From Ostreococcus lucimarinus (taxonomy: Eukaryota): 64,000 nucleotides of DNA. Of the stretch, positions 1-54,701 are shown piece by piece. The stretch lies in NCBI GenBank assembly GCA_000092065.1, contig CP000582.1. One strand, given 5' to 3'. A program made the position numbers and the translations under genes. Each line of letters starts with the position of its first letter. Position 1 is the stretch's first letter. The notes below the pieces were generated by a model. That model saw nothing but the letters and a program-made list of their open reading frames with translations, was not told where the DNA came from and ran no database searches.

Positions 1-545
1 TCGTCGCCATTTGCTCCTCGGGCATCATCCACGCGTTCATGTCCTTCCAAGATCCGCAAAACTTTGACTTCAGCACGCTGAACGATCGCATTCAACTCAT
101 CGACGACAAGCTTCCGGAATTCGAACAAGATGAAGATTCCAATCCGAAGCAGCTCGAGGCCGCGCTCGCGTGGATCAAGAAGTGGGGCATTGGCTTCACC
201 TTCGTCATGATTGTCCTCTGGCCGGTCTTCTCGCTCCCGGCGGGTTGCGGCACCTCCGCAGGCTGCGGTGTCTTCAACAAGGGTTACTTCAACCTTTGGG
301 TTGGCATCGCCCTCGCGTGGGGCACCGTCGCCACCGCGGTGATCATCCTCCTGCCTGTGTACGAATCTTGGGATTCCATCTCCGTCGTCTTGAAGGGCAT
401 GTTCACCAACGACGACGTGCACATGCGCATGGATGTCCTCGAAAGCAAGATCGACGCGCTTCTCGCGCCGGGCTCCACGAAGTCTACCGAGAAGTTGTCT
501 CAGCAACCGGGTTACCGTGCGAAGCTCATCGCCGGCCACCTGTAA
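1..545 (+). CDS. C-terminal part of a DUR3-like urea/solute symporter (SSS family); 5' end lies outside the window
   Basis: The frame is open from base 3 and the ORF-track Met at 39 is internal. The last two hydrophobic helices (GIGFTFVMIVLWPVFSLP, LWVGIALAWGTVATAVIILLPVY) plus a hydrophilic tail fit the C-terminus of Na/solute symporters. Position immediately beside urease, UreG and UreD supports a urea transporter call. Confidence 0.5.
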   Translation, partial: VAICSSGIIHAFMSFQDPQNFDFSTLNDRIQLIDDKLPEFEQDEDSNPKQLEAALAWIKKWGIGFTFVMIVLWPVFSLPAGCGTSAGCGVFNKGYFNLWVGIALAWGTVATAVIILLPVYESWDSISVVLKGMFTNDDVHMRMDVLESKIDALLAPGSTKSTEKLSQQPGYRAKLIAGHL

Positions 546-716
546 GTCGTGACCCGACTGACGCGGCGAACGCCACGAGCGAACCGCGCAAAGCTACATT
601 TATTCACTTTACAGCAGTACGAAGTCATCCGTTGTTGCTTCAGATAGATTTAGTGATCGAAATTCTTCATTCAGTATTGTAATTTTTTACATTAATATCT
701 TTCCTGCAACCGTCGT

Positions 717-3239
717 TCACACGATAAAGTATCTTCTCGCGAGGGGCAGCTCTTGCGCAGGCTGACTTTTCAACACGACACCGTCTGCTCGAACCTCATA
801 TGTTTCTGGATCGACTTCTATCCTCGGGCACGCGTTATTCAAAACCATATCGTCTTTGCTAAGGCCTCTGCATTTGACCACAGCCTCGACGCGTTTATTG
901 AGACCGTACTCGGCGCCAACATCCGCGGCGGCGGCCGCGGCGCTCACGAACGCTATGCAAGTCTTCCCCGGTTTGAGAGCACCGAACATTCCTCGCATGA
1001 TGACAGGCTCAGGAGTCGGAATACTTGCATTTGGATCACCCATCTGCGCCCACGCGATTTGTCCGCCTTTAACGACGATTTCTGGCTTGGCGCCGAAGAA
1101 AGCTGGCTTCCAAATGACGACGTCGGCGAATTTTCCCACTTCTAGGCTGCCGACCTTGTGCGACATGCCATGAGCTATGGCAGGATTGATGGTATACTTC
1201 GCTACATACCGTTTCACCCGAACGTTATCCGCACCCGAGTTTGCATCTTCTTCAAGAAAACCTCGTTGTTCTTTATTAGAGTGTGCGGTTTGCCACGTGC
1301 GGCGAATGACTTCTCCGACCCGTCCCATGGCTTGCGAGTCGCTCGCCATGATACTAAGCGCACCCATATCGTGAAGAACATCTTCGGCCGCGATAGTTTC
1401 TGCACGAATGCGTGATTCAGCAAACGCAACGTCTTCCGGGATCTCGGGATCGAGATGATGGCACACCATGAGCATATCCAGATGCTCGTCCACGGTATTT
1501 TTTGTGTATGGTCGTGTTGGGTTCGTGGATGAAGGAAGGACCATTTTTTCACCACAAACCTTGATGATATCCGGCGCATGGCCACCACCAGCACCTTCAG
1601 AGTGATACGTATGAATAGTGCGACCTTTGAAAGCCTCAATGGATTTTTCGACGCAGCATGATTCGTTGAGCGTATCCGTGTGAATGGTGACGGCGACGTC
1701 GTACTCTTCTGCAATGGTGAGACAGTTGTCGATCGCAGCCGGTGTTGTGCCCCAATCCTCGTGTAGTTTCATACCGACAGCACCAGCTTTTATGATTTCG
1801 TGCAAGCCTTCGGGCGACGCCGTGTTTCCCTTGCCAGTGAACGCGAAATTGAGTGGTAGCGCATCCGTCGTCTCAAGCATGAACTGCATGTGCGCAGCAG
1901 AGGGCGTACACGTGGTCGCGCACGTTCCCGACGCTGGTCCTGTACCGCCGCCAAGGAGGGTTGTGATGCCGCTAGCGACAGCCTCAGTGCACAGTTGCGG
2001 ACAAATGTAGTGAATGTGCGTGTCCAGTGCTCCCGCGGTGACGATACATCCTTCCGCGGCAATGGCTTCGGTATTCACGCCGACAACCATCCCAGGGGTC
2101 ACGTCAGCGACGTCTGGATTACCACCGTGACCTATACCAACGATGTGACCATCTTTAATGCCGATATCAGCCTTATAAATACCACTATGATCGACTATCA
2201 GTGCGTTCGTGATGATTGTGTCGAGAGAATCAGCGTCGCCGACACCCGCCTGCTGCGACATTCCCTCGCGAAGCGTCTTACCGCCGCCAAATTTGGATTC
2301 TTCACCTTTCATCGTCAAGTCGCGCTCGGGGGTGATGTAAAGGTTCGTATCTCCCAGTCGTACGCGATCACCGATTGTGGGTCCGTACATGTGCGCGTAC
2401 TTGTGTCTCGGAATCATCAACGGCTCACCTTCGCCCAAATCGTCAGCGTCGACGTGCCCGAAGCCGCCGTCGATCACCCGCTTCATGACTTCGTCCAACC
2501 GATCCGCGGTCGCGGGTCCATTCACCAAATTGTTCCCACCTTTGACCACCCGGTTACCAGCGATATTCACCATATTCACAGTTTTCGACTCTCCAGGCTC
2601 GAATCGCACCGCCGTGCCGCTCGGAATGGCCAAACGCGCTCCGTACGCTCGCCGGCGATCAAACGTCAGAAACCGATTCGCCTCGATGAGGTGAAAGTGG
2701 CTTCCCACTTGAATCGGTCGATCACACGTGTTCGTTACCTTCAGTTTTCGTTTCGGTCTTCCCGCCAGGAGCTCTAAAGAATCCTTCGACGTACGAACCT
2801 CCCCCGGCGCCGGTGTCTTCTCCTTTGTCGCCGGAGGAAACGCCTTCTCGCTCGGTTTCGGTAAAAACGATCCCAGCAGCGCGAGTTCGAGATCGACGTC
2901 ATCCGCACATATCGCATCGTGAATCGTGATCAACTTCGTCCCATCGTCGAACGTCGTCTCTATCTGCACGTCGCCCACGAGTTCCGGGACGCCGTCGAGC
3001 ACGTGTCGTCGTCCGAGCACGCGCTTTCCCAAATCCTGCACCTCCACCGACGTCAGCGCGCGCCGTTCCCCGTCCTTATCGAACTTTGGATCTCTCACGA
3101 GCTCGACGCACTGCATCGCGATCAACGCCACGGCCTCCGGGTGGTTCAAACGCATTCCACGCGCGAGTCTTCGCTGCGCCACGCGTCCCGCGGCGAAGAG
3201 AATGTTCAGTTTATCGATCTCACACGGCGTGAGACGCAT
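717..3239 (-). CDS. URE: Urease, single-chain eukaryotic type (gamma-beta-alpha fused), 841 aa
   Basis: Continuous ORF with N-terminus [18 protein letters not shown] (gamma-like). Alpha-subunit motifs present: [51 protein letters not shown]. Start trimmed from the ORF-track 3869 to the ATG at 3239, where homology begins. Confidence 0.93.
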
Positions 3240-3485
3240 CGTTCGCGCGCCTTCTTTCGCCGACGACGCCGCGAGCTTTGATATGTTCGTCCGCGTTGGC
3301 GCCCGCGACCCGGCGACGCTTCCGCGCGCGAGAAAGTGCCGCGCGACGCGCGATGCGAAAAGCGCACTTTTCCGCGACCTTTCGCGACGCGTCACCGCGC
3401 GACGCCCCTGGGCGCTTCGACGGCCCGCGCGCGCGACGGCGGCGCGACGGTGGCTCAAAAATCGATCGCGCGACGGCTCGGCGCG

Positions 3486-4286
3486 ATGTCCGGCGACGCG
3501 CACGCGCACGCGCACTCGCACGGGAGCGATGAGGTGGAATTCGGCGAATTGCACGCGCACGACGGCTTGAAGCCGCACCGACACGAGCGGTTGTACGGAC
3601 CGGGATCGTTCGCGAAGCGCCGGAAGGGCGCGAAAGTTCGAGCGCAAACGTTCGCCGATCGCGCGTACACGGTCGGGATCGGAGGACCCGTGGGCACGGG
3701 GAAGACGGCGCTGACGCTGGCGCTGTGTCGAGCGCTGCGGGACGCGTACGACGTCACGGCGGTGACGAACGACATCTTCACCAGGGAGGATGGAGAGTTT
3801 TTGATCGCGAACGATGCGTTGGGAGATGCGAATCGCATTCGAGCGGTTGAGACGGGAGGGTGCCCGCACGCGGCGATCCGGGAGGATATATCGAGTAATC
3901 TGAACGCCGTCGAAGACCTCACGGCGGCGTATCCGGATTGCGATTTATGTTTGATGGAGAGCGGCGGCGATAATTTAGCGGCGAATTATTCGCGCGAGCT
4001 CGCGGATTACATCGTGTACGTCATCGATGTGTGTGGCGGGGATAAGATTCCGCGAAAAGGTGGACCAGGGGTGACGCAGGCGGATTTATTAGTCGTCAAC
4101 AAGTGCGAGCTCGCCGACGCCGTCGGCGCGTCGCTCGAAGTCATGGAACGCGACGCCAAGATCCAGCGCGAGGACGGCCCGGTGGTCATGGCGCAGGTCA
4201 AGAAAGGCGTCGGCGTGCGAGAGATCGCTCAGCACATCCTCGACGATTGGGCCGCGCAGACCGGGCGCGAGAAGAAACCGTTCTAG
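3486..4286 (+). CDS. UREG: Urease accessory GTPase UreG with His-rich N-terminal extension
   Basis: P-loop [33 protein letters not shown]-terminus [14 protein letters not shown]...[12 protein letters not shown] is a His-rich nickel-binding-like tract. Start set to the ATG at 3486 in the 3336 ORF. Confidence 0.9.
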
Positions 4287-4315
4287 TTTTAGTTTCGGTT
4301 TAGGGTTTAGGGTTT
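4284..4315. repeat. Interstitial telomere-like repeat: degenerate units then 2 perfect TTTAGGG plus TTT
   Basis: tagttttagtttcggTTTAGGGTTTAGGGTTT, between the UreG stop and the UreD start. Reverse complement gives tandem AAACCCTA telo-box-like motifs. Confidence 0.7.
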
Positions 4316-4474
4316 CCCGAAGAGACCTTTGCACTTTTTCACTTTTTCGCCGCATTAAAACTCTTCACTCTTCGTCGTCGAGCGCGCCGCTCGCCGACGT
4401 CGAGCCTCGCGGCTGAGCGTGATCACGCGTCTGTCCTCGCGCGCGCGGCGCGCGCGGCGCGCGAGACGGCGCAG

Positions 4475-5485
4475 ATGCGTCGCGCGTTCGCCGGTGACTC
4501 TTCAGCGCGGCGCGCGTGTTCCATCGCCGCGCTCGACGTCACGCGCGCCAACGGCCGTTCCGCGGTGACGCGATGCTACGCGGAGTACCCGGTAAAGTAT
4601 CTCACGCCCAAGCGCGGGATCGATGGCGATTGCGATTGCGCGTGGGCGTACGCGGTGAACATGGGCGGCGGTTTGGTGAGCGGCGACGCGAGCGGGACGA
4701 CGATTCGCGTGGACGACGGATGCGCTTTGGCGTTGGCGACGCAAGGCACGCAAAAGGTGTATAAACATAATAAACGACGATGGAATGACGATGCGAAGGC
4801 GGGCGAGGGTGATGGACGATCGAATGTGGGGGAGACCACGTCGGCGCTGTACGCGAGCGTCGGCGACGGCGGGTTGTTGGCGTTGCTACCAGATCCTACG
4901 CAAATATTCGCCGATGCCGTGTTTCGACAGACGCAAACGATCGATATGCACGAACATGGGTCGTGCGTGTGCGTGGATTGGATAACGGCGGGAAGGGTCG
5001 GGTACGGAAACGAGCGATGGGCGTTCAAGAGGGCGGACGTGCGCACGCGCGTGACGTCAAACGGCGAACCCGTCGTCGTCGAAGCCACGCGTCTAGAGGC
5101 GTCTTCGCGCGATTCACTGAACGCCGAAATCTCGCTCGCGATGAGAATGGGTGCGGTGAACGTGGTCGCGTCGCTCATCATCGTCGGTCCCCGCGTGCGG
5201 GAACTCGCGAAATCGTGCGGCGATTGGGCCCGCGATTCGGCGACGCGCAGTATGGCTCACGGCGGCGCTTCCTGGGTGCGCGCTTCCCCTGGCAGCGTCA
5301 CACAAACCGACCCACAATCAAAATTTTTCGTTTCTGCGAGCGATTTACCCCTCCCACACTCCGGCATCGTCCTCCGTTTCTTCGCCGCGGATTCCGAATC
5401 CGTGCAAGACGTCCTCCGCTCGCTTCTCGCCCCGCTCGCGTCTCAGCTCGGCGCTCCTCCCTACGACGAGCGCGGCGGTTCCTGA
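4475..5485 (+). CDS. URED: Urease accessory protein UreD/UreH
   Basis: YPVKYLTP, NMGGGLVSGD, ALATQGTQKVYK and a C-terminal region typical of the UreD family. ATG at 4475. Confidence 0.8.
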   Translation: MRRAFAGDSSARRACSIAALDVTRANGRSAVTRCYAEYPVKYLTPKRGIDGDCDCAWAYAVNMGGGLVSGDASGTTIRVDDGCALALATQGTQKVYKHNKRRWNDDAKAGEGDGRSNVGETTSALYASVGDGGLLALLPDPTQIFADAVFRQTQTIDMHEHGSCVCVDWITAGRVGYGNERWAFKRADVRTRVTSNGEPVVVEATRLEASSRDSLNAEISLAMRMGAVNVVASLIIVGPRVRELAKSCGDWARDSATRSMAHGGASWVRASPGSVTQTDPQSKFFVSASDLPLPHSGIVLRFFAADSESVQDVLRSLLAPLASQLGAPPYDERGGS

Positions 5486-5524
5486 TTACATTCTCCATCA
5501 TTTGTACACTACACTTCTAGTTTT

Positions 5525-5935
5525 CTAGTCATTCTTCGGCGTCCCCATTCCCGCCGCGGCCTCCGCGTCTCGCTCGTCGTGCGGCCGCTCGCCCGTCTTC
5601 AGTCGCTTCACCGCGCGCTTGTAATCCTTCGTCTTCATGTGGCTCTCCAGCCCCTCGCGCGTGCTGAACCTTCGACCCGTGGCGACGGCAAAGTACGTCC
5701 CGACGTCCTCATCGATCGCCGTCTGATTCGCGCCCTCGATCAGGTCGAGCGCGGTCGCGCCGCGTTTCAGCGGTGTCCCGTTCGCGGCGGCGGCGGCGGC
5801 GTGAAACGCCTCGAAACGCACGTCCGCGTGCGTCGAACTGGCGTACCCGACGCGGCGAGCGGTTTTACATAAATGCGTCTTCGTCGCGCGACCGGCGGTC
5901 TTGCGCTTGACCTTGCTGCCCTTCTTTTGACCCAT
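5525..5935 (-). CDS. Bud20 / ZNF593-like ribosome-biogenesis protein with degenerate C2H2 finger
   Basis: Basic N-terminus MGQKKGSKVKRK. ESHMKTKDYKRAVKRLK aligns with the ZNF593 KTHFRSKDHKKRLKQL. C-terminal EAAAGMGTP matches the ZNF593 ERAAGMGSY. Cys/His ligands replaced (YFAVATGRRF, DYKR). Confidence 0.6.
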   Translation of the reverse strand: MGQKKGSKVKRKTAGRATKTHLCKTARRVGYASSTHADVRFEAFHAAAAAANGTPLKRGATALDLIEGANQTAIDEDVGTYFAVATGRRFSTREGLESHMKTKDYKRAVKRLKTGERPHDERDAEAAAGMGTPKND

Positions 5936-6007
5936 GGGACAGAGGCGAGGTGTGCGGGACGGCGAGAGACGCGAATTCGCGATGATGCATATTGATTGAT
6001 GAGCGCG

Positions 6008-6592
6008 CTAAGACGCGGGCGTGGTGAGGAGATGACCGTCTGGATGCATCGTGCGCAGGGTGAGGCTGACGCGATGGGCGCGAGGCACGGCGATGGCGTC
6101 GAAGACGTCTTCGTAACGCGCCGGGATGGCGTGGGTGAACCGGCGACGCGCGTCGCCGCGGATGAAGAGCAAATCACCGTGATCGAGACGCACCGCGGTC
6201 GTCGCGATTGAACTATGTTCGCGCTCGACGGGCTCGAATTCCATGGTGATGGTCGATCGGAGGCTGAGAGAGACGACGACTTCGCCGAAGGCGGCCAAAT
6301 CGACGTGCTTCGACAACCCGCCTGGCGGAACGTACTGGTTCACGATGCACTGGGAAAATGCGAATAAATCGCCCTCGTGCGTGTCGATGAATTTCGTCTC
6401 CAGAGCGATGCCGCGCAGTCTGCGGGCGAATGCGTTGAGCCAGTCGGGTAGAGGCGAGAATCGCATCGCCTGCTCGTTTTCAAGCCATCCCTCGTGCGCC
6501 AGCGCGGCGTCTATGGAGGCTAACTCATTCGCCGTGAACGCGTGCTTGATGTGCATCAACCCTTGGGGGACATCATAGGCTTTATAAATCAT
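6008..6592 (-). CDS. AlkB-like 2OG/Fe(II) dioxygenase (ALKBH6-like)
   Basis: CIVNQYVPPGGLSKHVD, VVSLSL, a second His in RFTHAI, and a C-terminal Arg-containing strand give the HxD...H double-stranded beta-helix signature. Confidence 0.6.
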   Translation of the reverse strand: MIYKAYDVPQGLMHIKHAFTANELASIDAALAHEGWLENEQAMRFSPLPDWLNAFARRLRGIALETKFIDTHEGDLFAFSQCIVNQYVPPGGLSKHVDLAAFGEVVVSLSLRSTITMEFEPVEREHSSIATTAVRLDHGDLLFIRGDARRRFTHAIPARYEDVFDAIAVPRAHRVSLTLRTMHPDGHLLTTPAS

Positions 6593-6619
6593 CTCATGGG
6601 GCGCACCATGCCCTCGCGG

Positions 6620-7450
6620 TCAGTTTCCCGCGAACATCGCGTCGAGCGCGTCGAGCGCCACCTTGGTCTCGGCGTTGGCGCTGGCGTCGCCCTCGTCCGT
6701 CATCGCCGCGATCATCTCCCGAGTCTTGGCGATGCGAGCGATCGTCGCTGGGTTTCGAAAATCGTCCACCGCCTTGGGATTCTTTTCGAAGTCCACGCAT
6801 CGAGCTATGTCGAGGAGCACGCGCGCCGCGGCTTCTCTGCAGTTGATGTCGGCTGATTCGAGACACTTGGCCGCATTCGCGATCGCCCCGAACTCCACCG
6901 CCGACGCCATGTTCCCCTCGCTTTGCGTAAAGACGTGTTTGCCCAGAACCAAAGCCTTCACTCGCACGCGCTCAGCGCCGTCGTGCCCGATCAATTTCGC
7001 GCACGCGGCCGCGCCGCCTCCCAACGAAAACGCTCGCTGCGCGTCGTCGCAACCGCGTGTCAGGGAACTCAACGCAAACAGCGCCTTGCCTCGCACCTCG
7101 TCGTCCGCATCGGATATCGCGGCTTCGATCAATACCCCCATCGCGCCCTCCTCCAGCGCGTGTTTCTGCGCCTTGGGATGATTTTGCGTCGTCGTCGCCA
7201 GCGCCTCCGCCGCGAGCGCTCGCACGCTCGCCCGAGAGCACTTCATCGTTCCAATCAGCGCTTCCATCCCCCCGATCGTGTGTAAATCCCCCGCGTTATC
7301 TACATTCTCCACGCGTTCGATCAAATCCTCCAGAACCATCTCCAATCGCTCCCCATCCTCCTCGCTCGTCGTCTCTCCGCGCGCCGCGTTCCGCAGCGCC
7401 TCCACGTCCTCCTTCATCTTCTTCACCTCATCCACGAGCCCACTCGCCAT
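6620..7450 (-). CDS. Hsp70 nucleotide-exchange factor Fes1 / HspBP1-like (armadillo repeats)
   Basis: VENVDNAGDLHTIGG, RALAAEALATTTQNHPKAQ and VRGKALFALSSLTRG match the Fes1/HspBP1 family pattern. Confidence 0.7.
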   Translation of the reverse strand: MASGLVDEVKKMKEDVEALRNAARGETTSEEDGERLEMVLEDLIERVENVDNAGDLHTIGGMEALIGTMKCSRASVRALAAEALATTTQNHPKAQKHALEEGAMGVLIEAAISDADDEVRGKALFALSSLTRGCDDAQRAFSLGGGAAACAKLIGHDGAERVRVKALVLGKHVFTQSEGNMASAVEFGAIANAAKCLESADINCREAAARVLLDIARCVDFEKNPKAVDDFRNPATIARIAKTREMIAAMTDEGDASANAETKVALDALDAMFAGN

Positions 7451-7780
7451 GGCGTCGTAGAACCATTTGCGCTCCTCGTCCGTGAACTTTCGCGCCTTCG
7501 GCGCGTCTTTCGCGTCCTCGGCGTCGTGTTTGCCCTGCTGCGAGAGCGACCTGCGCGGATTCGTGTGTCACTCAGTCTGCAGTCAAATTTCGTCAAATAT
7601 CTGTCCGTCCCGCGCGACGCGCGTGTCACCGTCTTCGTTCGTCGTCGTCGTCCCTCGCGTCGCGCGTCGCGCGTCGCGCGCTCGCGCGCACCATTTCAAA
7701 AGCGCGCTCCACGTCGAGTTATCCGGCGCGTCGTCGCGCGCGCTCGCGCCGTCGTTCGACATTTCGCGACGCGTCGCGCA

Positions 7781-8119
7781 ATGCCGGCCGCGCTGTCCCG
7801 AGCCGTGTTTCGCGCACCGCGCGTCGCGCGCGCGCCGCGCCGCGCGCCGCGCGCGCGCGCGCGACGCGCGCGGACGTTCGCCGAACCGGAGAAGTCGTCC
7901 GAGGGCGAATACGGGCTGAATCCGCTCACGGGGGAGCCGCTGGAAGCGAAAGGGCAACTCACCGCCATCGTCACGGGCGTCGTGAGCGTCGCGCTGGCGC
8001 TCGGGTACTTGGCGTTGGTGCAGGTGATGGACTCGAGGGAGATGGTGGCGCCGCCCGAGGAGGCCTTCGGCGACGGGAGCGTGCGGCCGGCGGATGAGCG
8101 GGCGCGTAGGGGGGAGTGA
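7781..8119 (+). CDS. Hypothetical small single-pass membrane protein with Ala/Arg-rich organellar presequence
   Basis: ATG at 7781 (MPAALSRAVFRAPRVARAPRRAPRA...) followed by one TM helix LTAIVTGVVSVALALGYLALVQV. Sits divergent from the Fes1-like gene. No family assignment. Confidence 0.35.
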   Translation: MPAALSRAVFRAPRVARAPRRAPRARARRARTFAEPEKSSEGEYGLNPLTGEPLEAKGQLTAIVTGVVSVALALGYLALVQVMDSREMVAPPEEAFGDGSVRPADERARRGE

Positions 8120-8330
8120 GACGCGCGAGCGGGACGCGAGGGCGAGCGGAGCGACGCGCGAGGCGAAAAAAAATGTTTTGTGTAGTAGAGATGTTGAATA
8201 TGAAAGAATGGCGCGCTGTCTGCGTGATGTTCTATCGTCGTTCGTTCGCGCGAGACGCTGTGGACGGATCGGTGTGGATGGACCGGCGTCGACGACTCGA
8301 CGCGACGCGAGACGCGGAGGACGCGCGGTT

Positions 8331-9932
8331 TCAGTCTCGCGAGGCGGGCAAGATTTCAACCTTGCAGTTCTCCTTTAACCACTTGAACGCGAGCTTACCC
8401 TCCAAAGCATCTTGCGCTTGGAGGTAAAGCTGATTCTCGTTGTACTCCGTACCGAACTCCTCGAATTCTAGCTTGGCTTTTTCGACCTCTTCGTAGAGCG
8501 CCTCGCCGGTGACTTCGAGGTTTTCGAGCTTGGCCAAGTGCTCGCACGCGATGGTGCGTCGGCACACGCGCTCGATTTCGTCCTTTTGCTTGGTGAGGTA
8601 CTCGTTCACCATTTTCGCCGACGCTAATTGCTCGAGCTGCTTGGGGGCTAATTTCTGCTTGACTTGCATGGCGAGAAGTTGCTCCGAGTACATGTTCCTG
8701 CCTTGCTCTTCGATGAGCGACTTGGGAATTTTGACATCGCAAATATCAGCCAAAGCGTCGACACACGCCTCGTCGATCGCTCGTTCCAAATCATACTCAT
8801 ACTTTGCGGTGATGCTATCCAAAATTTTCGCCTTAGCGTCGGCGATGGAGGTGGAGCCGGGGAAAATCTTCTCCGCCAAAGCGTCCGTCTCCTTCGGGAA
8901 CTCGCGCCCGAAGAGCTCGCTCACGGTGACGGTGAATTTTGCCTTTACGTTTCGCACGTACTCCTGCGGCCAATCGCCCGGGAACACGATCTCGAACGAC
9001 TTCTTGTCGCCGACTTCCATACCTACGATATTCTCGAGCAAACCGGGAAGCTTGATGTTGCCGCCGTCAGTGTCGAGTTGGAACGCCTTTTGTTGCATCC
9101 CTTGCAACGCGGCGCCGTCGGTGCCGTCGTCGTTGACGCGCACGGCGTCGATATCAACCACCGCAGCGTCTCCAGAGACGAGGCCACGATCGGTCACGAC
9201 ACGCAAGGTAGATTGATCCTTGAGCGCGTCGTTCCAAAACTTATCCGCATCGTACTGGGCGGTGGCATCATCCCCCGGGCTCTGCACCTTGACGCTCAAG
9301 CTCTTGTGATCCCCCGTAAACGCGACGGTCGGTTCCATCTCGACCATGACTTCATACTTCATGTCCTCGCACGGCGCCGAGTGCACGCCCGCGAAAGACG
9401 AAAACATATCCATAAAGTGCGTCGTAATTCGCTCGGAATCCTGCAACGCCGTCGCGGCGACGAGTTCCATCGCCTCCGGCAACGAGTTTTGCAACGCCTC
9501 CTCCACGCACGCGCTCTGGAATTCCTTCTTCCCCACGTGATTTATCAACAACTGCATCGGGATCTTCGTCGACGCCTTCGACCCTTTCTTCGACGCGTTA
9601 AATCCCGGCACCGTGACCGTATCGTTGAATCCATCGACGACGTTATCGTAGCACTTTTGCAGCAACGCCTCCGGGACGCGCACCGTGAGCTTCACCGCGC
9701 CGTCGCCCGCGTCCTCCTTATCCACCACGCATCCGCTCTTCGTCGTCACCGTCTCCGCGCCGCTCACCGCGCGCGTGAGAACGCTTCTCCGCGCCCTTCT
9801 CGTCGTCGCCGCGCCCTTCGTCGCGCGTTCGGCGACGCGCGACGAAGATTTTCGCGCGTTTGAGGTTTTAGGTCGGCTTCGCGCGTTCGTCCCGAGCGGC
9901 GTCGCGCGCGGCGCCGCGGTCGCCGCGAGCAT
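8331..9932 (-). CDS. TIG: Trigger factor, plastid-type (Tig) with N-terminal transit peptide
   Basis: Three-domain trigger-factor layout. FKBP-type PPIase core GMEVGDKKSFEIVFPGDWP...VKAKFTVTVSEL. Ser/Thr/Arg-rich presequence. Confidence 0.75.
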   Translation of the reverse strand: MLAATAAPRATPLGTNARSRPKTSNARKSSSRVAERATKGAATTRRARRSVLTRAVSGAETVTTKSGCVVDKEDAGDGAVKLTVRVPEALLQKCYDNVVDGFNDTVTVPGFNASKKGSKASTKIPMQLLINHVGKKEFQSACVEEALQNSLPEAMELVAATALQDSERITTHFMDMFSSFAGVHSAPCEDMKYEVMVEMEPTVAFTGDHKSLSVKVQSPGDDATAQYDADKFWNDALKDQSTLRVVTDRGLVSGDAAVVDIDAVRVNDDGTDGAALQGMQQKAFQLDTDGGNIKLPGLLENIVGMEVGDKKSFEIVFPGDWPQEYVRNVKAKFTVTVSELFGREFPKETDALAEKIFPGSTSIADAKAKILDSITAKYEYDLERAIDEACVDALADICDVKIPKSLIEEQGRNMYSEQLLAMQVKQKLAPKQLEQLASAKMVNEYLTKQKDEIERVCRRTIACEHLAKLENLEVTGEALYEEVEKAKLEFEEFGTEYNENQLYLQAQDALEGKLAFKWLKENCKVEILPASRD

Positions 9933-10184
9933 CGCGCGCGCGTGCGAGCGCGGCGCGAGAGAGCGCGGAGGCGTTCGGCGGTTCGGCGGGCGCGCGGATG
10001 GCGCGCGTCGTCGTCTGCGGCGCGCGCGGCGGCGCGCGGAAGCCCCCTTCGCGATAAGGTTTATACCTCATATTATGAGTGTCATATACGGTATGTAGTA
10101 CGTACACTGCACACACACCTAGGGTTCAGGCTCGCGCGGCAGAATCCAACCGACGACAGACGACGACGCGCGGCGCGCGCGCGC

Positions 10185-12341
10185 ATGGCGTCCGACGTCG
10201 CCGCCGCCTCGCGCGCGCGCGAGGACGCCCGCGTCGCGTTCTTCGACGCCGTCCGACGCGCCGTCGTCGCGCTCGGGACCGCGGACGACGACGAACCATC
10301 CGCGAACGATGCGCGCGCGGCGTCGACGGAACGCGACGACGCGGCGACGCTCTCGCGCGCGGCGTCCGCCGCGCGCGCGCTCGCGGCGACGGCGAATGCG
10401 CTGGCCGTCGCGGACGACGTCGCGGGGTCGGTGAGCGAGCTGGAGGACGAGGACGGGGCGATGGCGAAGCTGGAGCGCGCGAGCGCGAGCGCGGCGAGCG
10501 CGGCGGAGACGTTTCGGACGCTCGCGAGCGAGGACGGGGCGCGCGCGCGGGCGATGATCGGTGAGCGTGGACAGCTGACGTGCGATGCGGTGCGAGACGC
10601 CGCGTGGGGGGGGCTTCGAGCGAGGCTGGCGGCGAGCGGGTGGCCGCCCGGTTTGCGGCCGACGGAGCTGCGCGCGTACGGGTGGTCGTTGGCGCGAGAC
10701 GGCGGCGAGGACGACGACGCGGACGCGGCGTTGAGGGAATTGCGCGCCGTGCGAGCGTTTCACGTGCTGCGAACGACGTCGGAGGCGAGAGCGGCGTTCG
10801 CGGGGGAGGCGTCGTTCGCGCACGACGACGTCGCGTTGGCGTTTGTGGAGGATTTAGCCGAAGCCTTGCGCGTGACGTTTGCCACGCGCGGATCGTTGAG
10901 CGATCCGAGGAAACCCGAGCGCTTATTCGCGTGCGCGAAGGAGTTGACGATCAAGACGCCGATGTTGGTGCGCGCCGAGCTCGATCGCGCGGTTTTCGTC
11001 GACGAGCCAAAAATCGCCGTGGCGACGACTCGACACTACTTGTCGCTGTTGCTTCACGCCGTTTCGGACGTCATTCGAACGCACGTGTGCGTCGCGTGCG
11101 CGGCAAGCGAAGAACCGTGGTGGTTGCACGTCGCCGACGAGTGTCGCGCGTTTGACGATCACGTGTCTCGTAATCCGTACGCGGACGTCGAGGAGACGCC
11201 GAAGGTCCTCGACGCTTTGGTGTGCGAGCAGGCGCACGCCGAGGCATGGCTCGACGCCGAGTGCGAGCACGCGAGAGTGCGGGCGAGCAAGTCATGGAAC
11301 GAGGCGAAGAATTGGGCCGCGAGCGCGGAAGACGGGGACGTGGAATACAAGGCGCCGTACGTCGCCCAAGTCGTCGTGGAGGAAACAAAGAACGCGTTCG
11401 AGAGCGCCAAGGGGCTGTCGAGGGCAGACTGGCGGTTATATTTCGTAAACAGAGTGGCGATACCAGTCTTAGATGAGTTTATAGACGAGTGTGAGTGTCG
11501 TGCGGTGGGTTCGAAAGGATTAGGTTCGCTCGTCGCGGCGACGGGGAGCTGGCGCTCCGGCACGGAGGGCACCGCAGTCATCGGCGCCGCCGTGAACGCA
11601 TCCACTTTCGTCGCTCGAGCGTTGCGCGTGTTGGCAGAAGACACGTTTGTTTTAGAGTTTGGTGGAGAAAAGTGTTTGGAGACGTACGCGAGCAAGTTCG
11701 AAAAGTTCACCGCGCGTTGGATCGACGCCGTCGCGGACGCCGCCGCGTCGCAATTCACGGATAAAGTACTCGGCGACGCCTACGTCGGTTCGACGCACTT
11801 GCAGGCGTACGAAACGCTCGGTGACGAAGATGCACGTGATGCTAGCGATGATGGATCGTCCCGGAACGTATCGGCGAGCGGGTACATGCTCGCCGCTCTC
11901 GCGCCTCTTCGCGACCGCGTCGACGACGCTCGAGCGGCGTTCGGCGTCGCGGCGTTTGAAAAGTGTTGGCGCGCGATCGCGAGCAAGACGACGCGCGTGA
12001 TCGTCGATCGCATCGTGTGCGTCGCGACGTTCTCTCGCGCGGGCGCGAAGCAACTCGAGCGCGATCGCGACGCCCACGCGAACGTCTTCGTCGAGTGCGC
12101 CAAGCGGCCGTCGGCGCTTCGAGCCAAAACAAAGACTCTCGCCGAATGCGTCTCCGCGCTTTCGTGCGACGGTCCCACGGCGCGCGAGCTCATCGAGGCT
12201 CTTCGTAGCGACGGTATGAAGGGCCTAGCCGTGGTCAACGCCCGTAAGTCATCGCTCGACGTCACCGCGCTCGACGACGCCTCGCTTCTCCGAGTCCTTC
12301 GCCGCCGCCGCGACGTCGTCGACGGCGACGCCGTCGCCTAG
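10185..12341 (+). CDS. Conserved hypothetical protein, possibly a RINT1/TIP20-like tethering factor
   Basis: 718-aa ORF from the ATG at 10185 (MASDVAAASRARED). Ala-rich coiled N-terminus and a helical C-terminal domain. No diagnostic motif recognised, so the family call is tentative. Confidence 0.4.
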   Translation: MASDVAAASRAREDARVAFFDAVRRAVVALGTADDDEPSANDARAASTERDDAATLSRAASAARALAATANALAVADDVAGSVSELEDEDGAMAKLERASASAASAAETFRTLASEDGARARAMIGERGQLTCDAVRDAAWGGLRARLAASGWPPGLRPTELRAYGWSLARDGGEDDDADAALRELRAVRAFHVLRTTSEARAAFAGEASFAHDDVALAFVEDLAEALRVTFATRGSLSDPRKPERLFACAKELTIKTPMLVRAELDRAVFVDEPKIAVATTRHYLSLLLHAVSDVIRTHVCVACAASEEPWWLHVADECRAFDDHVSRNPYADVEETPKVLDALVCEQAHAEAWLDAECEHARVRASKSWNEAKNWAASAEDGDVEYKAPYVAQVVVEETKNAFESAKGLSRADWRLYFVNRVAIPVLDEFIDECECRAVGSKGLGSLVAATGSWRSGTEGTAVIGAAVNASTFVARALRVLAEDTFVLEFGGEKCLETYASKFEKFTARWIDAVADAAASQFTDKVLGDAYVGSTHLQAYETLGDEDARDASDDGSSRNVSASGYMLAALAPLRDRVDDARAAFGVAAFEKCWRAIASKTTRVIVDRIVCVATFSRAGAKQLERDRDAHANVFVECAKRPSALRAKTKTLAECVSALSCDGPTARELIEALRSDGMKGLAVVNARKSSLDVTALDDASLLRVLRRRRDVVDGDAVA

Positions 12342-12471
12342 CCCCCACGACCGCGCGCGCGTCGCCCCTCGCGATTAGAACACACTCAAACAAGCACAAC
12401 CATAGTCAAAAATCATTCACGCTATTCGGATTACAACCGCGCCGCGACGCCGCTCGACCCTCGACCGCGGT

Positions 12472-12918
12472 CTACGTCCGCCTCTGGTCCGGGTCGTGCA
12501 CGATCAACTCGTCGATCCCCCAATCCTCGTAACTCCCGTCCGGCATGTACCGCCGCACCACAAACGGCACTCTTTTCTCCCTCAACTCCTTCCCGGCGAT
12601 CTCCAGCGGATCCGTCTCTCCCTCGAGCTGCACCAACACCGGCGCGTTCATCGAAATCTGCAGCGCCCTCGTCCCCAGGATGCGCGCCCGCTCGTACTTT
12701 GTCATGTACGGCGTCGTCGTCCGCTCGTGCCTCGGCACCGCCCCACCGCCGCCTCGCCGCGTCGACCCTCGCCGCGCCCCTCCCGCGCGCTCGTCGCTGT
12801 CCACGATCGTCGGCGCGTCGTCCGCGTCGTCGTCGTCGGCGATCGCGTCCGCGTCCGCGAGATCGTCATCGATCGCGACGTCCTCGTCGCCGTAATCGCG
12901 CTCCTCCGCGTCCTCCAT
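12472..12918 (-). CDS. RPB6: RNA polymerase I/II/III common subunit RPB6 (RPABC2)
   Basis: Acidic N-terminus [19 protein letters not shown]. Core [72 protein letters not shown] is near-identical to eukaryotic Rpb6. Start trimmed to the ATG at 12918. Confidence 0.9.
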
Positions 12919-13081
12919 GGCGCGCGCGCGATCGAGCGCTCTTCGCCGCGTCCGTTCGCGCGTCGAGCGACGCTCGCGCGCTCGCGCGCGGCGCGGAGTG
13001 CGGCGACGCGCGCGCGCGGGACGCGCCGCACTGTCGGCGGCGCGACGATTCATCGGCGCCGCGCGCGCCGCGCGGCGTCGC

Positions 13082-14125
13082 ATGGCGCTTCGACGCGCCT
13101 CGAAGGTCGCGACGGCGGTCTCGCGCGCGCGCGCCGCGTCGGCGGCGCACCGCGGCGCGCGCGCGACGCGCGAGGGGACGTCGCGCGCGTCGAGGGCGGG
13201 CGGCGTCGACGCGGCGTCGTCGTCGACGCGTCGCGCGGGCGCGCCGACGCGCGCGCTCGCGAGCGCGAGCGCGCCGTGGTACGCGGCGTCGCCGAGCGGG
13301 CGCGCGGTGACGCTGCTGTGCGCGTTCGCGTCGGCGACGGACCGAGGGCGATGGGACGTCTTCGGCGATTTCGAGCACGGCGGCGCGAGCGCGTGCGAGC
13401 TCGTCGCGGGACGCGACGACGATGAGGATTCAGACGACGCGGGCGAAGATAACGGCGGTGCGACGATGGAAAGAATGGACGACGCGCGACGCGAGGCGCT
13501 GCGAAGGCGATACAGCACGCTGCGAGGGCGCGTCGACTGCGCGCCGCCGCCGAGCGGGACGAAGTCGCGGTTGAAGCGAAGCGGCTTCGCGGGCGCGCGC
13601 ACGAAACCGCTGACGCGAACGCTCGTGAATCCAGATCCCACGCTCGATTTCGACGCGTACGACGCGCTGAGTTATCGCGTGCGCGGCGACGGTCGGATGT
13701 ACGTGGCGAGCGTGCGAACGGAGAACTGGATGACGGGCGACTCCGCGGAGGACGTGTGGCAGGCGGCGTTTCGACCGCCGAAGGACGAGTGGGTGGACGT
13801 CGTCGTCCCCATCGAAGCGTTCGTGCAGACGCATCGCGGACGCGCCGTGCGCGATCACTCGCGCATGAGCGCCAATCGCGTGGTGTTTCTCGGCTTGGCC
13901 GTCGCCGGGAGCGCCGAGAAGAGCCTCGAGGCGCGTCGCGCCGAAGCCGACGGCCCGTTCCGTCTCGACGTGCACTCCATCTCGGGCCTGCGCATGACGG
14001 AAGAAGAGCTCGAAGCGCACGCCGCGGCTCGCGAGGGCACGCGCGAAAACTACCCGTGCGGCGGTTTCGCCGCGCGCGCCGTCGAAGCCCTCGACGCGCG
14101 CGACGATTTCGTCAATCCCTTCTAG
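13082..14125 (+). CDS. CIA30 (NDUFAF1)-like complex I assembly factor domain protein
   Basis: CIA30-like beta-sandwich region [13 protein letters not shown]...[19 protein letters not shown]...RVVFLGLAV...[11 protein letters not shown]. Start could also be the ATG at 12917, which would add an Arg-rich presequence. Confidence 0.55.
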
Positions 14126-33195: not shown

Positions 33196-36100
33196 ATGTC
33201 CATCACGCTCGAAAACAAGGGCTCGCTCCGCGCGTTCCCGTCCGTGGCGAGCATGTCCAACATGTCGGAGATGTCCGCGGCGAGTGTGGAGACGCAGGAC
33301 GAGCGGTCGGCGGATGAGGTGCGCGAGGCGAAGGAGGCGACGCTCGCGAGCGACCGCGGCGAGTTCATCGAGGGCGTCGAACAAGGGAAATTCGTCGGGA
33401 CGAAGATCGCGAGCGCACTGGGGGACGTGGCGGGGGAGGTGCGGGAGGCGGCGCTGTCGGTGGGACGAGCGGCGCTGTCGGATTTGACGGATAAGGCGCG
33501 GGGAGCGGCGTGCGCGGAGGCGCTTTTGGGGTATTTGACCGGACAAGGGGCGTGCGAACCGATGAGTCACGGCGAGGATAACACGCACGGAGCGGCGATT
33601 GCGTTGTACGCACACGCGGCGCAGCTGTTTTACGACGATGCGGGGAAGGTTGAGGCGATTAAGAGAATCGTGGAGGCGCTGCGAAGCGTGCGGGACGCGG
33701 GCGCGTTCATCGGCGCCCGAGCGATCGGTAACTTGGCTGCGGACGTCCGTGAAGCCGCGATCGCGATGCTCGGCGAATTGAAGTCCAAGGCGTTGACCGG
33801 GGTAGACATCGCCGAGCGAAGGCAAGGCGCGGCGGCCATGGCTGGGATTTGCAAGGGGGTCGGCGTCGCCGCGCTCGCGGACTTACACGTCGTGGATGAG
33901 ATTAAAAAGGCTATCGAGGATAAAAAGGATCCCGTCGCTCGCGCAGGGGCGTTGTTGACGTACGCGCACATGTGTCGAACCGCTGGTCGTGGATTTGAGC
34001 CGTACGCCATCGGTGAAGCTCCCATCGTTTTCACGTTGCTCGGTGATAGAAATGCCGATGTTCGCGAGGCGGCGAATTTGGCGCAGGCTGCCGTCGTCAA
34101 GGCGTTGCCTTTGACGGCGATGAAGCTTTTATCTCCGGCATTAAATGCTGGCATGCAGCACAAGGACTGGCAGAGTAAGCTCGGCTCGTTACACATCATG
34201 GGCGACCTCGCGAACAGAGTGCCGCAATCGTTCATGCGAGCCATTCCGGATCTGTTCCCGTCGTTTTTGGACACTCTATTCGATACGCACCCGAAAGTTT
34301 CTGCGCTTTGTGAAGAAATTCTTCCCAGTATTTGCTGTTGCGTAAAAAATGCGGAGGTTTTGGGCATGATGGACCTCGTATTGAGTGCGATTCGCACACC
34401 GCAAAAAGCCACCGAGGACTGCTTGGACAAGCTTATGGAGACGACATTCGTGAACTCCATGGACGCCCCGTCCTTGGCTGTGATTTTGCCCGTCATCTTG
34501 CGCGGCCTGCGTGAGCGAACGAAAGAGCTCAAGCAAAAGGCTGCAACGACTTTCGGAAACATTTGCGCTTTGGTCGACGACCCTCGCGATCTGCTCCCGT
34601 TTATTCCGGTGTTGTTGCCCGAGTTGGAAAAGGCTGAAGAGCACTCGCATCCAGACTTGCGCGAAGCCGCGACGCGCGCAAAAACGAGTTTGATGAAAGG
34701 TATCGACGCGAGCCAGTCCGAGGAGCGCAAGGTTGCGTCGAATATCGTGAAGGAGGCCATCAATGGCGCCGGCGTCAACGTTGACGTCGAGACGCAGTCG
34801 TATGCGGCCGCGCTCGGCGGTTGGGTCATGGATTCCGCCCCGTTGCGCATTCCTCCCTCCATCTTATCGAATGACATCAAGCGTGAGCTCACTCCGGTGC
34901 TCGAAAGCGCGTTCGAAGGGAACATTCAAGCCATTGAAAAGATTGCCAATGTATCCGTGATGGCATACAAGGGCCTCGACGAATCAGCCCTGCTCGACGA
35001 AAGCACGAAGGATTACATCGTCGATCTTCAAGGCATTATTTTAGCCTTTGCCGGTCGCGTGTTACTTCAACGCACGAATTTCACGCTCGAACGTGGTCGC
35101 ACGTACGGCATCGTAGGTCAAAATGGTACCGGTAAGACGACACTTTTGAATCGCGTCGCGGCGAAGGATATCGCTGGTTTCCCGGAGGACGTCTCTGTAT
35201 ACTACATTCAGCACGAAATTATGAGTGATAAGGAAGAAACGATCGTCGACTTCATGGTTCAAATGGTACCTGAAGGTGTCACACGAGACACCGTCGTCAA
35301 CACTCTCAAAGAGGTTGGTTTCGACGACGAAAAGATGGCTGCCACTATTCAATCCCTCTCTGGCGGGTGGCGTATGAAACTCGCCATCGCGCGCGCCATG
35401 TTGTGGGACGCCGATGTTCTCTTGTTGGATGAGCCAACAAACCACTTGGACACGAGTGCTATCGCGTGGTTGACCAACTATTTGAAGTCCTTAACGAACA
35501 CCACCATCTGCCTCGTGTCGCACGACTACGACTTCCTGGCCGAGGTGCTGACGGACGTCATTCACTTGAGTGAAAAGACGCTCACATACTATCCCATGAG
35601 CTTCCGCGATTTCCAGTCGTTGAAACCTGAAATCGTCGCCGCGTTGCCGAGCAACGACAATGCGATCGCTAAGCAGTCAAACATCGAAGGTGGCTCTGCC
35701 GACGGAGCGAAAGAGGCGAAAAAAGAGAGCGGCTTTGCCATCGACCAAATCGGCGACGACCAGCCGTCGCACATCAAACCGATTCGATTCCCCGAACCGG
35801 GTGATTTGGAGGGCGTCAAGTCTCGCGCAAAATGTGTCATGTACATGAAAGAGGTATCGTTCGGCTATCCAGGAACTTCAAAGAAGATTCTCAACGGTGC
35901 TACCGTGAAAATTACGCAAAACTCTCGAGCGGCGCTCGTGGGCCTCAACGGCGCCGGTAAGACGACGCTTTTGAAGTTACTCATCGGCGCACTTCAAATC
36001 GATGAAGGTGTCGGGGAAGTCTGGCGCCACCACAACTTGCGACTGTCCTACATCGCGCAACACTCCATGCAGCACTTGGAAGAGTCTTTGGAGAACACGC

Positions 36101-36918
36101 CGTTGGAGTACTTGCAAAACCGCTTCTACAATGGTCGCGATAAAGAAATCGCCAAGCGCGCCTCGCACAACTTGAGCAAGGACGAGCTCGCAACATCGCA
36201 AGAGCGTGGTAACATCATGGATGTCATTGGTCGCGTGATGCGAGGTAAACATCTGTTTTACGAAGTGCGCCGCGCCGGACGCGAAGAAAACGACACCGAT
36301 TGGGAAATGATGAGTTCGTTAGAGCGCAAGGATCCGTACGTGATGAAGATGGTGCGTAACTTTGACGAAAAGCTCAAGGCGATGCAATCGGGTATGGATT
36401 TACGACCGCTCACCAAAGAAGAAGTGCGCATTCACTTGGAAAACTTTGGTATTGATCAAGATTTGGCCATGGGGAAAATCAAGCGCATGTCCGGCGGGCA
36501 AAAGAGTCGACTCGTCCTCGCCGCGGCCATGTGGACGAATCCACACATCATCGCTCTTGATGAGCCGACAAACTACTTAGATAACGATACCTTAGCTGCG
36601 TTGACCAAGGCGCTCATTGATTTCAAGGGTGGGGTGATTACGATTTCCCACAACGAGCCGTTCGTGAACGCCGTGTGTGACGAATTGTGGCGAGTCGGCG
36701 ACGGAGTCGTCGTGACGGAGCCTGTAGCGGGTAAGGCGCCGAAGAAACTTTCTGTGGCTGAACGACGGGCTCTCAAAGCCGGCATCGACGCCGAGGAGGC
36801 GACGATGAAAGAAGCACAGAACAACAAAAAACTCACCGCCAAGGAAAAGAAGGAAGCGGCGGCGGCGAAGAAGGCGGCTGCTGGTCCGGTCAAGGATCTG
36901 TACGGTCGCGGCAAATAA
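33196..36918 (+). CDS. Elongation factor 3 (eEF3)-like ABCF ATPase with N-terminal HEAT repeats
   Basis: HEAT-like N-terminus. ABC1 GIVGQNGTGKTTLL / LSGGWRMKLAIARAML / LLLDEPTNHLD. ABC2 ALVGLNGAGKTTLLKLL / MSGGQKSRLVLAAAMW / IALDEPTNYLD. Chromo-like insert and Lys-rich C-terminal tail. Start at the ATG at 33196. Confidence 0.8.
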   Translation: MSITLENKGSLRAFPSVASMSNMSEMSAASVETQDERSADEVREAKEATLASDRGEFIEGVEQGKFVGTKIASALGDVAGEVREAALSVGRAALSDLTDKARGAACAEALLGYLTGQGACEPMSHGEDNTHGAAIALYAHAAQLFYDDAGKVEAIKRIVEALRSVRDAGAFIGARAIGNLAADVREAAIAMLGELKSKALTGVDIAERRQGAAAMAGICKGVGVAALADLHVVDEIKKAIEDKKDPVARAGALLTYAHMCRTAGRGFEPYAIGEAPIVFTLLGDRNADVREAANLAQAAVVKALPLTAMKLLSPALNAGMQHKDWQSKLGSLHIMGDLANRVPQSFMRAIPDLFPSFLDTLFDTHPKVSALCEEILPSICCCVKNAEVLGMMDLVLSAIRTPQKATEDCLDKLMETTFVNSMDAPSLAVILPVILRGLRERTKELKQKAATTFGNICALVDDPRDLLPFIPVLLPELEKAEEHSHPDLREAATRAKTSLMKGIDASQSEERKVASNIVKEAINGAGVNVDVETQSYAAALGGWVMDSAPLRIPPSILSNDIKRELTPVLESAFEGNIQAIEKIANVSVMAYKGLDESALLDESTKDYIVDLQGIILAFAGRVLLQRTNFTLERGRTYGIVGQNGTGKTTLLNRVAAKDIAGFPEDVSVYYIQHEIMSDKEETIVDFMVQMVPEGVTRDTVVNTLKEVGFDDEKMAATIQSLSGGWRMKLAIARAMLWDADVLLLDEPTNHLDTSAIAWLTNYLKSLTNTTICLVSHDYDFLAEVLTDVIHLSEKTLTYYPMSFRDFQSLKPEIVAALPSNDNAIAKQSNIEGGSADGAKEAKKESGFAIDQIGDDQPSHIKPIRFPEPGDLEGVKSRAKCVMYMKEVSFGYPGTSKKILNGATVKITQNSRAALVGLNGAGKTTLLKLLIGALQIDEGVGEVWRHHNLRLSYIAQHSMQHLEESLENTPLEYLQNRFYNGRDKEIAKRASHNLSKDELATSQERGNIMDVIGRVMRGKHLFYEVRRAGREENDTDWEMMSSLERKDPYVMKMVRNFDEKLKAMQSGMDLRPLTKEEVRIHLENFGIDQDLAMGKIKRMSGGQKSRLVLAAAMWTNPHIIALDEPTNYLDNDTLAALTKALIDFKGGVITISHNEPFVNAVCDELWRVGDGVVVTEPVAGKAPKKLSVAERRALKAGIDAEEATMKEAQNNKKLTAKEKKEAAAAKKAAAGPVKDLYGRGK

Positions 36919-36965
36919 CATTCTTTCAGCTTTTAATTCGAATTGCACTCTCAACAAACTATTTT

Positions 36966-54345: not shown

Positions 54346-54701
54346 CCCGATCGCGACTTCCTTGTTGAAGTAAATGCGTTGCGCTGGGATGAGGAAAGGT
54401 CGATCGCGTTCGTCAGTCTCTGTGTTTGGATCGTTTAGGTTTGATCGACGGTCGCGCGAGGTTCACGACGCGCGTACGCCGCCGCGACGCGTCTCGCGGG
54501 CGTCAGACGACGATGCGATGTCGCGGTGATCGTTTCGAGACGTACCGATGCCGTGATAGACCGTGTGTGCCATCGTGTGCGCGTCGAGATGTGAGGCTGG
54601 CTCGGCGGGTGGTCGGCGGACGCGGCGCTCGCGACAAAGTCGAAGTCAATTTTGTACAACTAAATCATCTCTACACGCGCCAGACGCTCGAAGCGCGTGA
54701 T

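Follow-up and report, generated by a model that had tools for sequence, protein, structure and literature searches.

A five-gene urea-utilisation cluster in Ostreococcus lucimarinus and its conservation among Ostreococcus lineages

Introduction

Among marine picophytoplankton, for which urea is a major regenerated nitrogen source, Ostreococcus serves as a model picoeukaryote. The 2006 genome paper on Ostreococcus tauri reportedly pointed out that genes for urea assimilation adjoin one another on chromosome 15. A 2021 survey by Foflonker and Blaby-Haas listed "urease assembly" among five previously reported clusters recaptured by their method (PMC7826186), and its supplement places the neighbourhood of ostta15g01680 (UreD) and ostta15g01700 (urease) in Bathycoccus and Klebsormidium as well, and gives it as absent from Micromonas pusilla CCMP1545. 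The product of ostta15g01710 has been named DUR3 (PMC7407893). Here, we describe the corresponding locus of Ostreococcus lucimarinus, the larger part of which lies at positions 1..5485 of a 64,000-nucleotide stretch of contig CP000582.1 (assembly GCA_000092065.1), hereafter called the window. The cluster is already known and its genes were annotated in the 2007 reference genome, so that its recognition in an initial annotation of the window from the letters alone is a correct rediscovery.

The O. tauri cluster (ostta15g01680 UreD, 01690, 01700 urease, 01710 DUR3, then UreF) is the closest described system and agrees with that of O. lucimarinus in all five genes, their order and their orientation. 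It differs in its chromosomal context and in its intergenic sequences, which cannot be aligned with those of O. lucimarinus.

Results

Composition of the cluster

Positions 1..5485 of the window very probably constitute the 3' four-fifths of a nuclear urea-utilisation cluster of five separately transcribed eukaryotic genes. In the orientation of the window the cluster reads UreF(+), DUR3(+), urease (URE, -), UreG(+) and UreD(+), with genes on both strands, spacers of ~170-570 bp and no gene in between, and it occupies ~8.5 kb. A metabolic gene cluster is recognised by at least three non-homologous genes of one pathway that are adjacent beyond chance; here all five of the five genes are adjacent, and the probability of five named genes filling five consecutive slots by chance is ~3.5e-14 for ~7,650 genes, which we take to be the gene number given in the genome paper. 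The open reading frame (ORF) listing and domain matches reproduced the coordinates that the initial annotation had given for the genes within the window, together with its four identities (DUR3, urease, UreG and UreD).

The urease gene (717..3239, minus strand) starts at 3237-3239, read as CAT on the plus strand, and encodes a protein of 840 aa in which the Pfam domains Urease_gamma, Urease_beta, Urease_alpha and Amidohydro_1 follow one another in proper order. This protein matched the NCBIfam urease alpha models with 905-945 bits, and its residues 1-839 are collinear with the 840-aa ureases of pigeon pea (4g7e) and jack bean (3la4), with scores of 1105-1112 bits. The active-site blocks HxH, KLHEDWG, IHTDT, HTYH, CHH and SDSQAMGR are all identical to those of 4g7e. 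Among these, KLHEDWG holds the carbamylated lysine, IHTDT and HTYH hold histidines, CHH belongs to the flap, and SDSQAMGR holds an aspartate. By domain order, collinearity and active-site blocks, the 840-aa protein therefore has the predicted character of a eukaryotic single-chain nickel urease, i.e., a gamma-beta-alpha fusion.

UreG, the predicted GTPase that delivers nickel to urease, is encoded at 3486..4286 on the plus strand (ATG at 3486-3488; 266 aa). It matched the TIGR00101 ureG equivalog with 248 bits (cutoff 204.2) as well as PF02492 (cobW/UreG), and shares 62-68% identity with plant proteins. Its P-loop, the CPH metal-binding motif and ESGGDNL are invariant in an alignment of 12 sequences. 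An N-terminal extension is rich in histidine, with 8 His in the first 35 residues, and homologues are likewise His-rich at the N-terminus. Following a tandem spacer of 188 bp from UreG stop to UreD start (4287..4474), UreD, the predicted scaffold of the urease activation complex, occupies 4475..5485 on the plus strand (336 aa) and is the final gene of the cluster. It matched PF01774 with 152 bits (cutoff 27). A homologue search with UreD returned only 22 matches, all of them unnamed and thus uninformative on eukaryotic versus bacterial affinity, because UreD evolves too fast for a word-based search to reach named relatives. Urease, UreG and UreD have exactly the sequences of the O. lucimarinus CCE9901 models XP_001416478.1, XP_001416231.1 and XP_001416232.1, respectively.

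The first ORF (1..545, coding 3..545, plus strand) is open from the window edge in frame 3 and comprises the last 180 codons of DUR3 and its stop, the remaining 529 codons lying upstream of the window. The 180-residue tail alone had no Pfam match, and its identity was therefore taken from the ORF extended on near-identical contigs. The exact urease sequence is present on many marine metagenome contigs, of which six that are 99.6-99.96% identical to window 1..13,239 were used. The full protein, read from L001/L002, has 709 aa, of which the tail in the window represents the exact last 180 residues, and is the same as XP_001416230.1 / UniRef A4RSK0, named "Urea-proton symporter DUR3". It matched PF00474 (SSF) and TIGR00813 (203 bits, cutoff 184), and is 56-60% identical to land-plant DUR3 across 95-100% of the length and 67% identical to a Pycnococcus urea-proton symporter. 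This SSS-family protein is, as judged from these comparisons, a DUR3 orthologue and a predicted high-affinity urea transporter. Thus, the first ORF, which the initial annotation had thought likely to be DUR3, extends upstream to a full DUR3 gene.

Immediately beyond, 571 bp upstream of DUR3, lies UreF (275 aa; PF01730 with 52.5 bits, cutoff 23.3). That UreF would be missing from the window had been noted from the start, and a tblastn search of the whole 64 kb with UreF indeed gave no match. Neither UreD nor UreF matched an NCBIfam profile, these models having been built for bacterial and archaeal genomes. DUR3 and urease converge on a stop-to-stop spacer of 171 bp (546..716), which must contain both 3' ends; this convergent arrangement was also found in O. 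tauri, L007 and L015.

A DUR3 homologue was also observed at L016 64-2211, where it is 82% identical to O. lucimarinus DUR3 and is followed by TBP and thioredoxin/PUB genes, with no urease gene in the 10 kb downstream. This could represent either the gene of another lineage or a second DUR3 copy outside the cluster.

Eukaryotic character of the genes

In bacteria, urease genes are operonic, and it might be supposed that a bacterial operon was recently acquired here by horizontal transfer, or that the assembly is contaminated with bacterial DNA. Several observations would fit with this: the urease alpha region scores about equally per residue against bacterial alpha subunits and plant ureases; the one-strand URE-UreF-UreD arrangement of Bathycoccus-like and Micromonas-like contigs recalls bacterial ureABC-(E)-F-(G)-D; and a horizontally transferred urease cluster has been reported in Galdieria (Qiu 2013, as cited in PMC7826186). 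However, the gamma-beta-alpha fusion is collinear with the plant enzymes, the His-rich N-terminus of UreG is of eukaryotic type, and no UreE-like gene was called within the cluster or in the 10 kb around it. When DUR3 and UreG were searched against 5.8 billion proteins, every named match among the best 120 was eukaryotic: green algae or plants for DUR3, and plants, algae or fungi for UreG. Moreover, the genes lie on mixed strands among eukaryotic neighbours, namely an RWD/IBR E3 ligase, DPM2 and a PHD protein on the UreF side, with RNA polymerase Rpb6 also nearby; the guanine-cytosine (GC) content of the cluster matches that of the surrounding genome; and dozens of independent contigs carry the cluster, as does the reference genome. 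A recent bacterial import or contamination is consequently extremely improbable, and for DUR3 and UreG it is already effectively refuted. The locus also lacks the organisation of a bacterial ure operon, in which separate, co-oriented ureA, ureB and ureC accompany accessory genes. The fused urease, the placement of genes on both strands and the eukaryotic flanks bear out the initial proposal of a eukaryotic metabolic gene cluster rather than a bacterial operon, and the same is true of its description of the proteins as eukaryotic-type, in keeping with the His-rich UreG and the named matches of DUR3 and UreG.

Conservation of the cluster across lineages

The five-gene order is conserved across at least five Ostreococcus lineages, O. 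lucimarinus included. Order and orientation of all five genes are identical on chromosome 15 of O. tauri (CAID01000015.2, L012), whose cluster proteins are 86-95% identical to those of the window; on L015, with 91.5% nucleotide identity to O. lucimarinus; and in the L007/L023 lineage, whose urease is 87.5% identical. In the L028 lineage (urease 86% identical), the order is identical as far as the contigs reach, from UreF to UreG. The tandem order UreG to UreD was found in all Ostreococcus loci.

Outside Ostreococcus, three other Mamiellophyceae-like contigs retain linkage of urea genes in rearranged form. A Bathycoccus-like contig (GC 0.50) carries DUR3, two unrelated genes, and then UreD-UreF-URE on one strand; a Micromonas-like contig (GC 0.64) carries UreG, one gene, and then UreD-UreF-URE; and L014 (GC 0.54) carries UreG-DUR3-UreD. 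These rearranged yet linked genes imply that the linkage is old within Mamiellophyceae. In Pycnococcus, DUR3 stands alone, with no urease in the 10 kb downstream or the 10 kb upstream. The synteny comparison that the initial annotation had proposed thus returned conserved order within Ostreococcus and conserved linkage beyond it.

The spacer between URE and UreG

The start codons of urease and UreG are separated by 246 bp (3240..3485), exactly as first described, and this divergent spacer must hold both promoters as well as both 5' untranslated regions (UTRs). Since the two genes lie head to head and less than 1 kb apart, their geometry is that of a bidirectional promoter, and the initial annotation had proposed one here. 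In the strict sense, this would mean that a single nitrogen-responsive element drives both genes. The divergent arrangement itself is clear, and it has been kept in five Ostreococcus lineages, which is in favour of the proposal. However, such a spacing is the default for this genome: greedy ORF mapping gave 43 adjacent pairs in the window, 11 of which diverge, the median of their ATG-to-ATG spacers being 252 bp, and in a compact genome divergent neighbours inevitably have a few hundred bases in common. Between urease and UreG, the spacer measures 246 bp in O. lucimarinus, 204 bp in O. tauri, 187 bp in L007 and 740 bp in L028, with all lineages other than L028 falling between 187 and 253 bp. 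When aligned across four Ostreococcus lineages, only the spacers of the close relatives O. lucimarinus and L015 could be aligned, and those of O. tauri and L007 could not. In addition, the head-to-head pairing was seen in Ostreococcus and not in the Bathycoccus-like or Micromonas-like contigs, and is an Ostreococcus feature. The long L028 spacer, at 16302-17041, contains AT-rich stretches.

K-mer footprinting identified a 9-mer, GACCTTTCG, at 3376..3384 on the plus strand, that is common to the URE/UreG spacers of O. lucimarinus, O. tauri and L007. It occurs twice in the 64-kb window, versus 1.08 copies expected, and as a single copy per 21-22 kb in O. tauri L012 and in L007, in each case within the spacer. 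Its distance from the UreG ATG is 101 bp in both O. lucimarinus and O. tauri, and it is inverted in L007. In a Markov simulation, sharing of this kind had p ~0.007. The 9-mer is missing from L028, an independent lineage, and its L015 counterpart differs by one mismatch. We regard GACCTTTCG as a weak candidate cis-element, and as a lead only. A resemblance to a half-site of the plant nitrate-response element was dropped, given that the second half-site is missing in O. lucimarinus. A scan for bacterial promoters and terminators, which has no relevance to a eukaryote, was at background, with 3 sigma-70 promoters found versus 2.3 expected.

The rarity of GACCTTTCG, its presence in three lineages and its fixed distance in two of them speak for a true bidirectional promoter, as does the rise of O. 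tauri urease under nitrogen limitation (see below). Against it stand the default geometry, the spacers that cannot be aligned, the loss or mutation of the 9-mer in L028 and L015, and the confinement of the pairing to Ostreococcus. To these may be added footprinting work that, as cited in PMC2850359, found fewer bidirectional regulatory elements in O. tauri than in yeast. On balance, a shared nitrogen-responsive element driving both genes appears rather doubtful, and of the original proposal it is the divergent geometry that stands.

The DUR3 upstream region and nitrogen response

The region upstream of DUR3 is 571-799 bp long among the lineages, which is unusually long for this genome, and carries lineage-specific palindrome arrays. 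In O. tauri (L012 4405-4684), it consists of three 91-bp tandem units, each with ACGAGTCATGACTCGT, and one related copy of ACGAGTCATGACTCGT is present in the L007 lineage. In O. lucimarinus, four CGTTTCGAAACG-like copies are found outside the window, at L002 15107-15178. The palindromes may be regarded as candidate transcription-factor sites. The DUR3-promoter palindrome GAGTCATGACTC is absent from the window, and CGTTTCGAAACG has no exact copy there, its single 1-mismatch match, at 54531, being far from the cluster and at chance level.

In proteomic work on O. tauri under nitrogen limitation, DUR3 was 5.9-fold and urease 1.9-fold higher (PMC7407893, supplement). It is therefore plausible, and partly documented, that the cluster responds to nitrogen status. 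The initial annotation had gone further in calling the genes probably co-regulated by nitrogen; the rise of DUR3 and urease agrees with this in part, while co-regulation as such is not established.

Several observations weigh against the five genes forming one functional and jointly controlled module. Among the proteins themselves, the guanine-specificity motif of UreG reads NKCE (window 4098..4109, residues 205-208) in place of the canonical NKxD. This motif is NKCE, NKTE or NKVE in all aligned Mamiellophyceae, and NK(T/I)D in streptophytes and fungi; the change from Asp to Glu is conservative and lineage-wide. At the level of regulation, no cis-element common to the cluster promoters survived testing. 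The DUR3-type palindromes are absent from the URE/UreG spacer, and their presence upstream of DUR3 but not in this spacer suggests that DUR3 may be controlled separately from URE/UreG. With respect to expression, the two proteins measured, DUR3 and urease, differ in the size of their nitrogen response, the accessory proteins were not detected in the O. tauri proteome (PMC7407893), and a search of the literature found no transcript data for the five genes of the urea cluster.

Relocation and absence of the cluster as a block

The neighbours of the cluster differ between species. In O. tauri (L012 560-3381 and 11916-19973), they include an ABC-F/Myb protein, a mitochondrial carrier and a poly(A) polymerase. 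For nine genes bordering the O. tauri cluster, no orthologue was found in the 64-kb window or in the 9 kb upstream of it; the sole match, a 30%-identical ABC-F paralogue, is explained by an EF3-like gene in a low-GC stretch of the window. It follows that both edges of the cluster are synteny breakpoints, and that the block changed its chromosomal context between O. tauri and O. lucimarinus with its interior intact. The O. tauri cluster is flanked by a 23-nt AT-rich direct repeat (L012 3219-3241 and 11972-11994; 20/23 identical), which was the only terminal repeat found there that might mark a mobile element. As a transposition footprint, this repeat was rejected: both copies are in 3'-UTR positions and resemble other 3' ends, and it is probably a 3'-end signal.

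We also searched the metagenome contigs with the RWD/IBR flank protein and mapped the gene content of 25 loci. In four lineages, O. lucimarinus and three others, the cluster lies between the RWD/IBR gene and a gene for a 136-aa protein that directly adjoins UreD. In other, uncultured Ostreococcus-like lineages, at least three in number, the flanks adjoin one another with no urea genes between them, forming an empty site: in the L022 lineage (6816-9058), in the lineage of L025/26/27/36 (L025 4057-6311; L036 8001-10286), in the L032 lineage (6969-9233) and in L034 (5-1477). At the empty sites, PHD-DPM2-RWD/IBR directly meets the opposite flank, made up of the 136-aa protein, a 2OG oxygenase, a HEAT protein and trigger factor. 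These lineages are ~70% nucleotide-identical to one another, indicating separate species. A neighbour-joining tree of RWD/IBR proteins, midpoint-rooted and without support values, nests the empty-site lineage L022 among cluster-bearing lineages. The empty sites concern the RWD/IBR position only, and in these lineages the cluster could either lie elsewhere, as it does in O. tauri, or be missing altogether.

In VMHT01070558.1, a contig with 99.8% identity to O. lucimarinus, UreF codon 56 is joined to the UreD stop (L019 9897-9899; window 5482), with 8,298 bp removed and a 3-nt filler. This could be a deletion allele that exists in nature; it could also be a chimera of the assembly, given that just 171 bp separate the junction from the end of the contig.

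It could be argued that the adjacency of the five genes has no present function and is an ancestral remnant that has persisted through few breakpoints in a very compact genome. The lack of a shared cis-element and the unequal responses of DUR3 and urease would agree with this, as would the finding of Monnier et al. that the chromosome 10 nitrogen cluster of O. tauri shows no co-regulation over the diel cycle (PMC2850359). However, breakpoints have occurred at both edges of the cluster and left its interior order intact, and order and orientation are unchanged even though the flanks have only ~70% nucleotide identity and UreF only 43-50% protein identity. Furthermore, the linkage survives rearrangement in the Bathycoccus-like and Micromonas-like contigs, and lineages that lack the block at its usual site have none of it there. 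An adjacency without function is, in light of this, unlikely, and we favour the interpretation of a urea-utilisation cluster with maintained linkage.

A further possibility, which we put forward tentatively, is that the urea module is a discrete, dispensable and relocatable cassette in Ostreococcus, and that a deletion allele may segregate in natural O. lucimarinus. If so, urea use would be an all-or-none accessory trait, and the genes would be kept linked by selection that acts when the entire block is gained, lost or relocated, making the block a eukaryotic counterpart of the bacterial genomic island.

Neighbouring genes

The 136-aa protein next to UreD is encoded at 5525..5935 on the minus strand; it is rich in lysine and has no Pfam match. 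Most lineages have kept its gene in this place, whether the cluster is there or not, but L022 lacks it. Beyond it in the window lie a 2OG oxygenase, a HEAT/Fes1-like protein and trigger factor, which are unrelated to urea. The low-GC stretch at 33196..38849 (0.52-0.53, versus a window-wide 0.63) looks ordinary; an EF3-type ABC-F/HEAT protein and an mRNA capping enzyme are encoded there.

Discussion

Based on the known biochemistry of these families, the five genes would act on one substrate. DUR3 would take up urea with high affinity by proton symport, and the single-chain nickel urease would convert it to ammonia and carbamate. UreD, UreF and UreG would assemble into a GTP-dependent complex for carbamylation of the active-site lysine and insertion of two nickel ions, with the His-rich N-terminus of UreG possibly serving as a nickel-binding part in place of UreE. 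Since the five genes would be useful only together, their linkage may be kept through co-inheritance and all-or-none loss, and the linked genes would perhaps be expressed from a common chromatin neighbourhood.

A module of transporter, enzyme and maturation factors contained in 8.5 kb would be a handy unit for genetic manipulation, and the cluster could likewise serve as a handy marker in metagenomes for the potential to use urea. The presence, absence and relocation of the block among uncultured Ostreococcus bears on the question of why eukaryotic metabolic genes cluster, and may be what this analysis adds to existing knowledge.

When compared with other known systems, the Ostreococcus cluster shares with bacterial urease operons (ureABC with ureD/E/F/G) the catalytic domains, the functions of UreD, UreF and UreG, and the linkage of genes for the enzyme and its maturation. 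It differs in that the urease is one polypeptide, no UreE was called nearby and UreG has a His-rich extension, and also in that the genes are on both strands, are presumably monocistronic, and include a eukaryotic DUR3 instead of a bacterial urea transporter. The URE, UreD, UreF, UreG and DUR3 proteins of land plants and fungi are orthologous to those of Ostreococcus; in plant and fungal genomes the genes of the urease system are generally dispersed, whereas in Ostreococcus they are contiguous.

The green-algal nitrate-assimilation clusters (Chlamydomonas, Ostreococcus chromosome 10, Micromonas) are similar in being nuclear and in combining a transporter and enzymes for one nitrogen source (PMC2944026, PMC2850359). 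Compared to these, the urea cluster is smaller, serves another pathway, and mixes an enzyme with metallocentre assembly factors. Finally, Galdieria phlegrea is, like Ostreococcus, a eukaryotic alga with clustered urease genes (Qiu et al. 2013, as cited in PMC7826186). In contrast with that cluster, which according to the citing survey was reported as a horizontal acquisition from bacteria, the DUR3 and UreG of Ostreococcus group with eukaryotic sequences.

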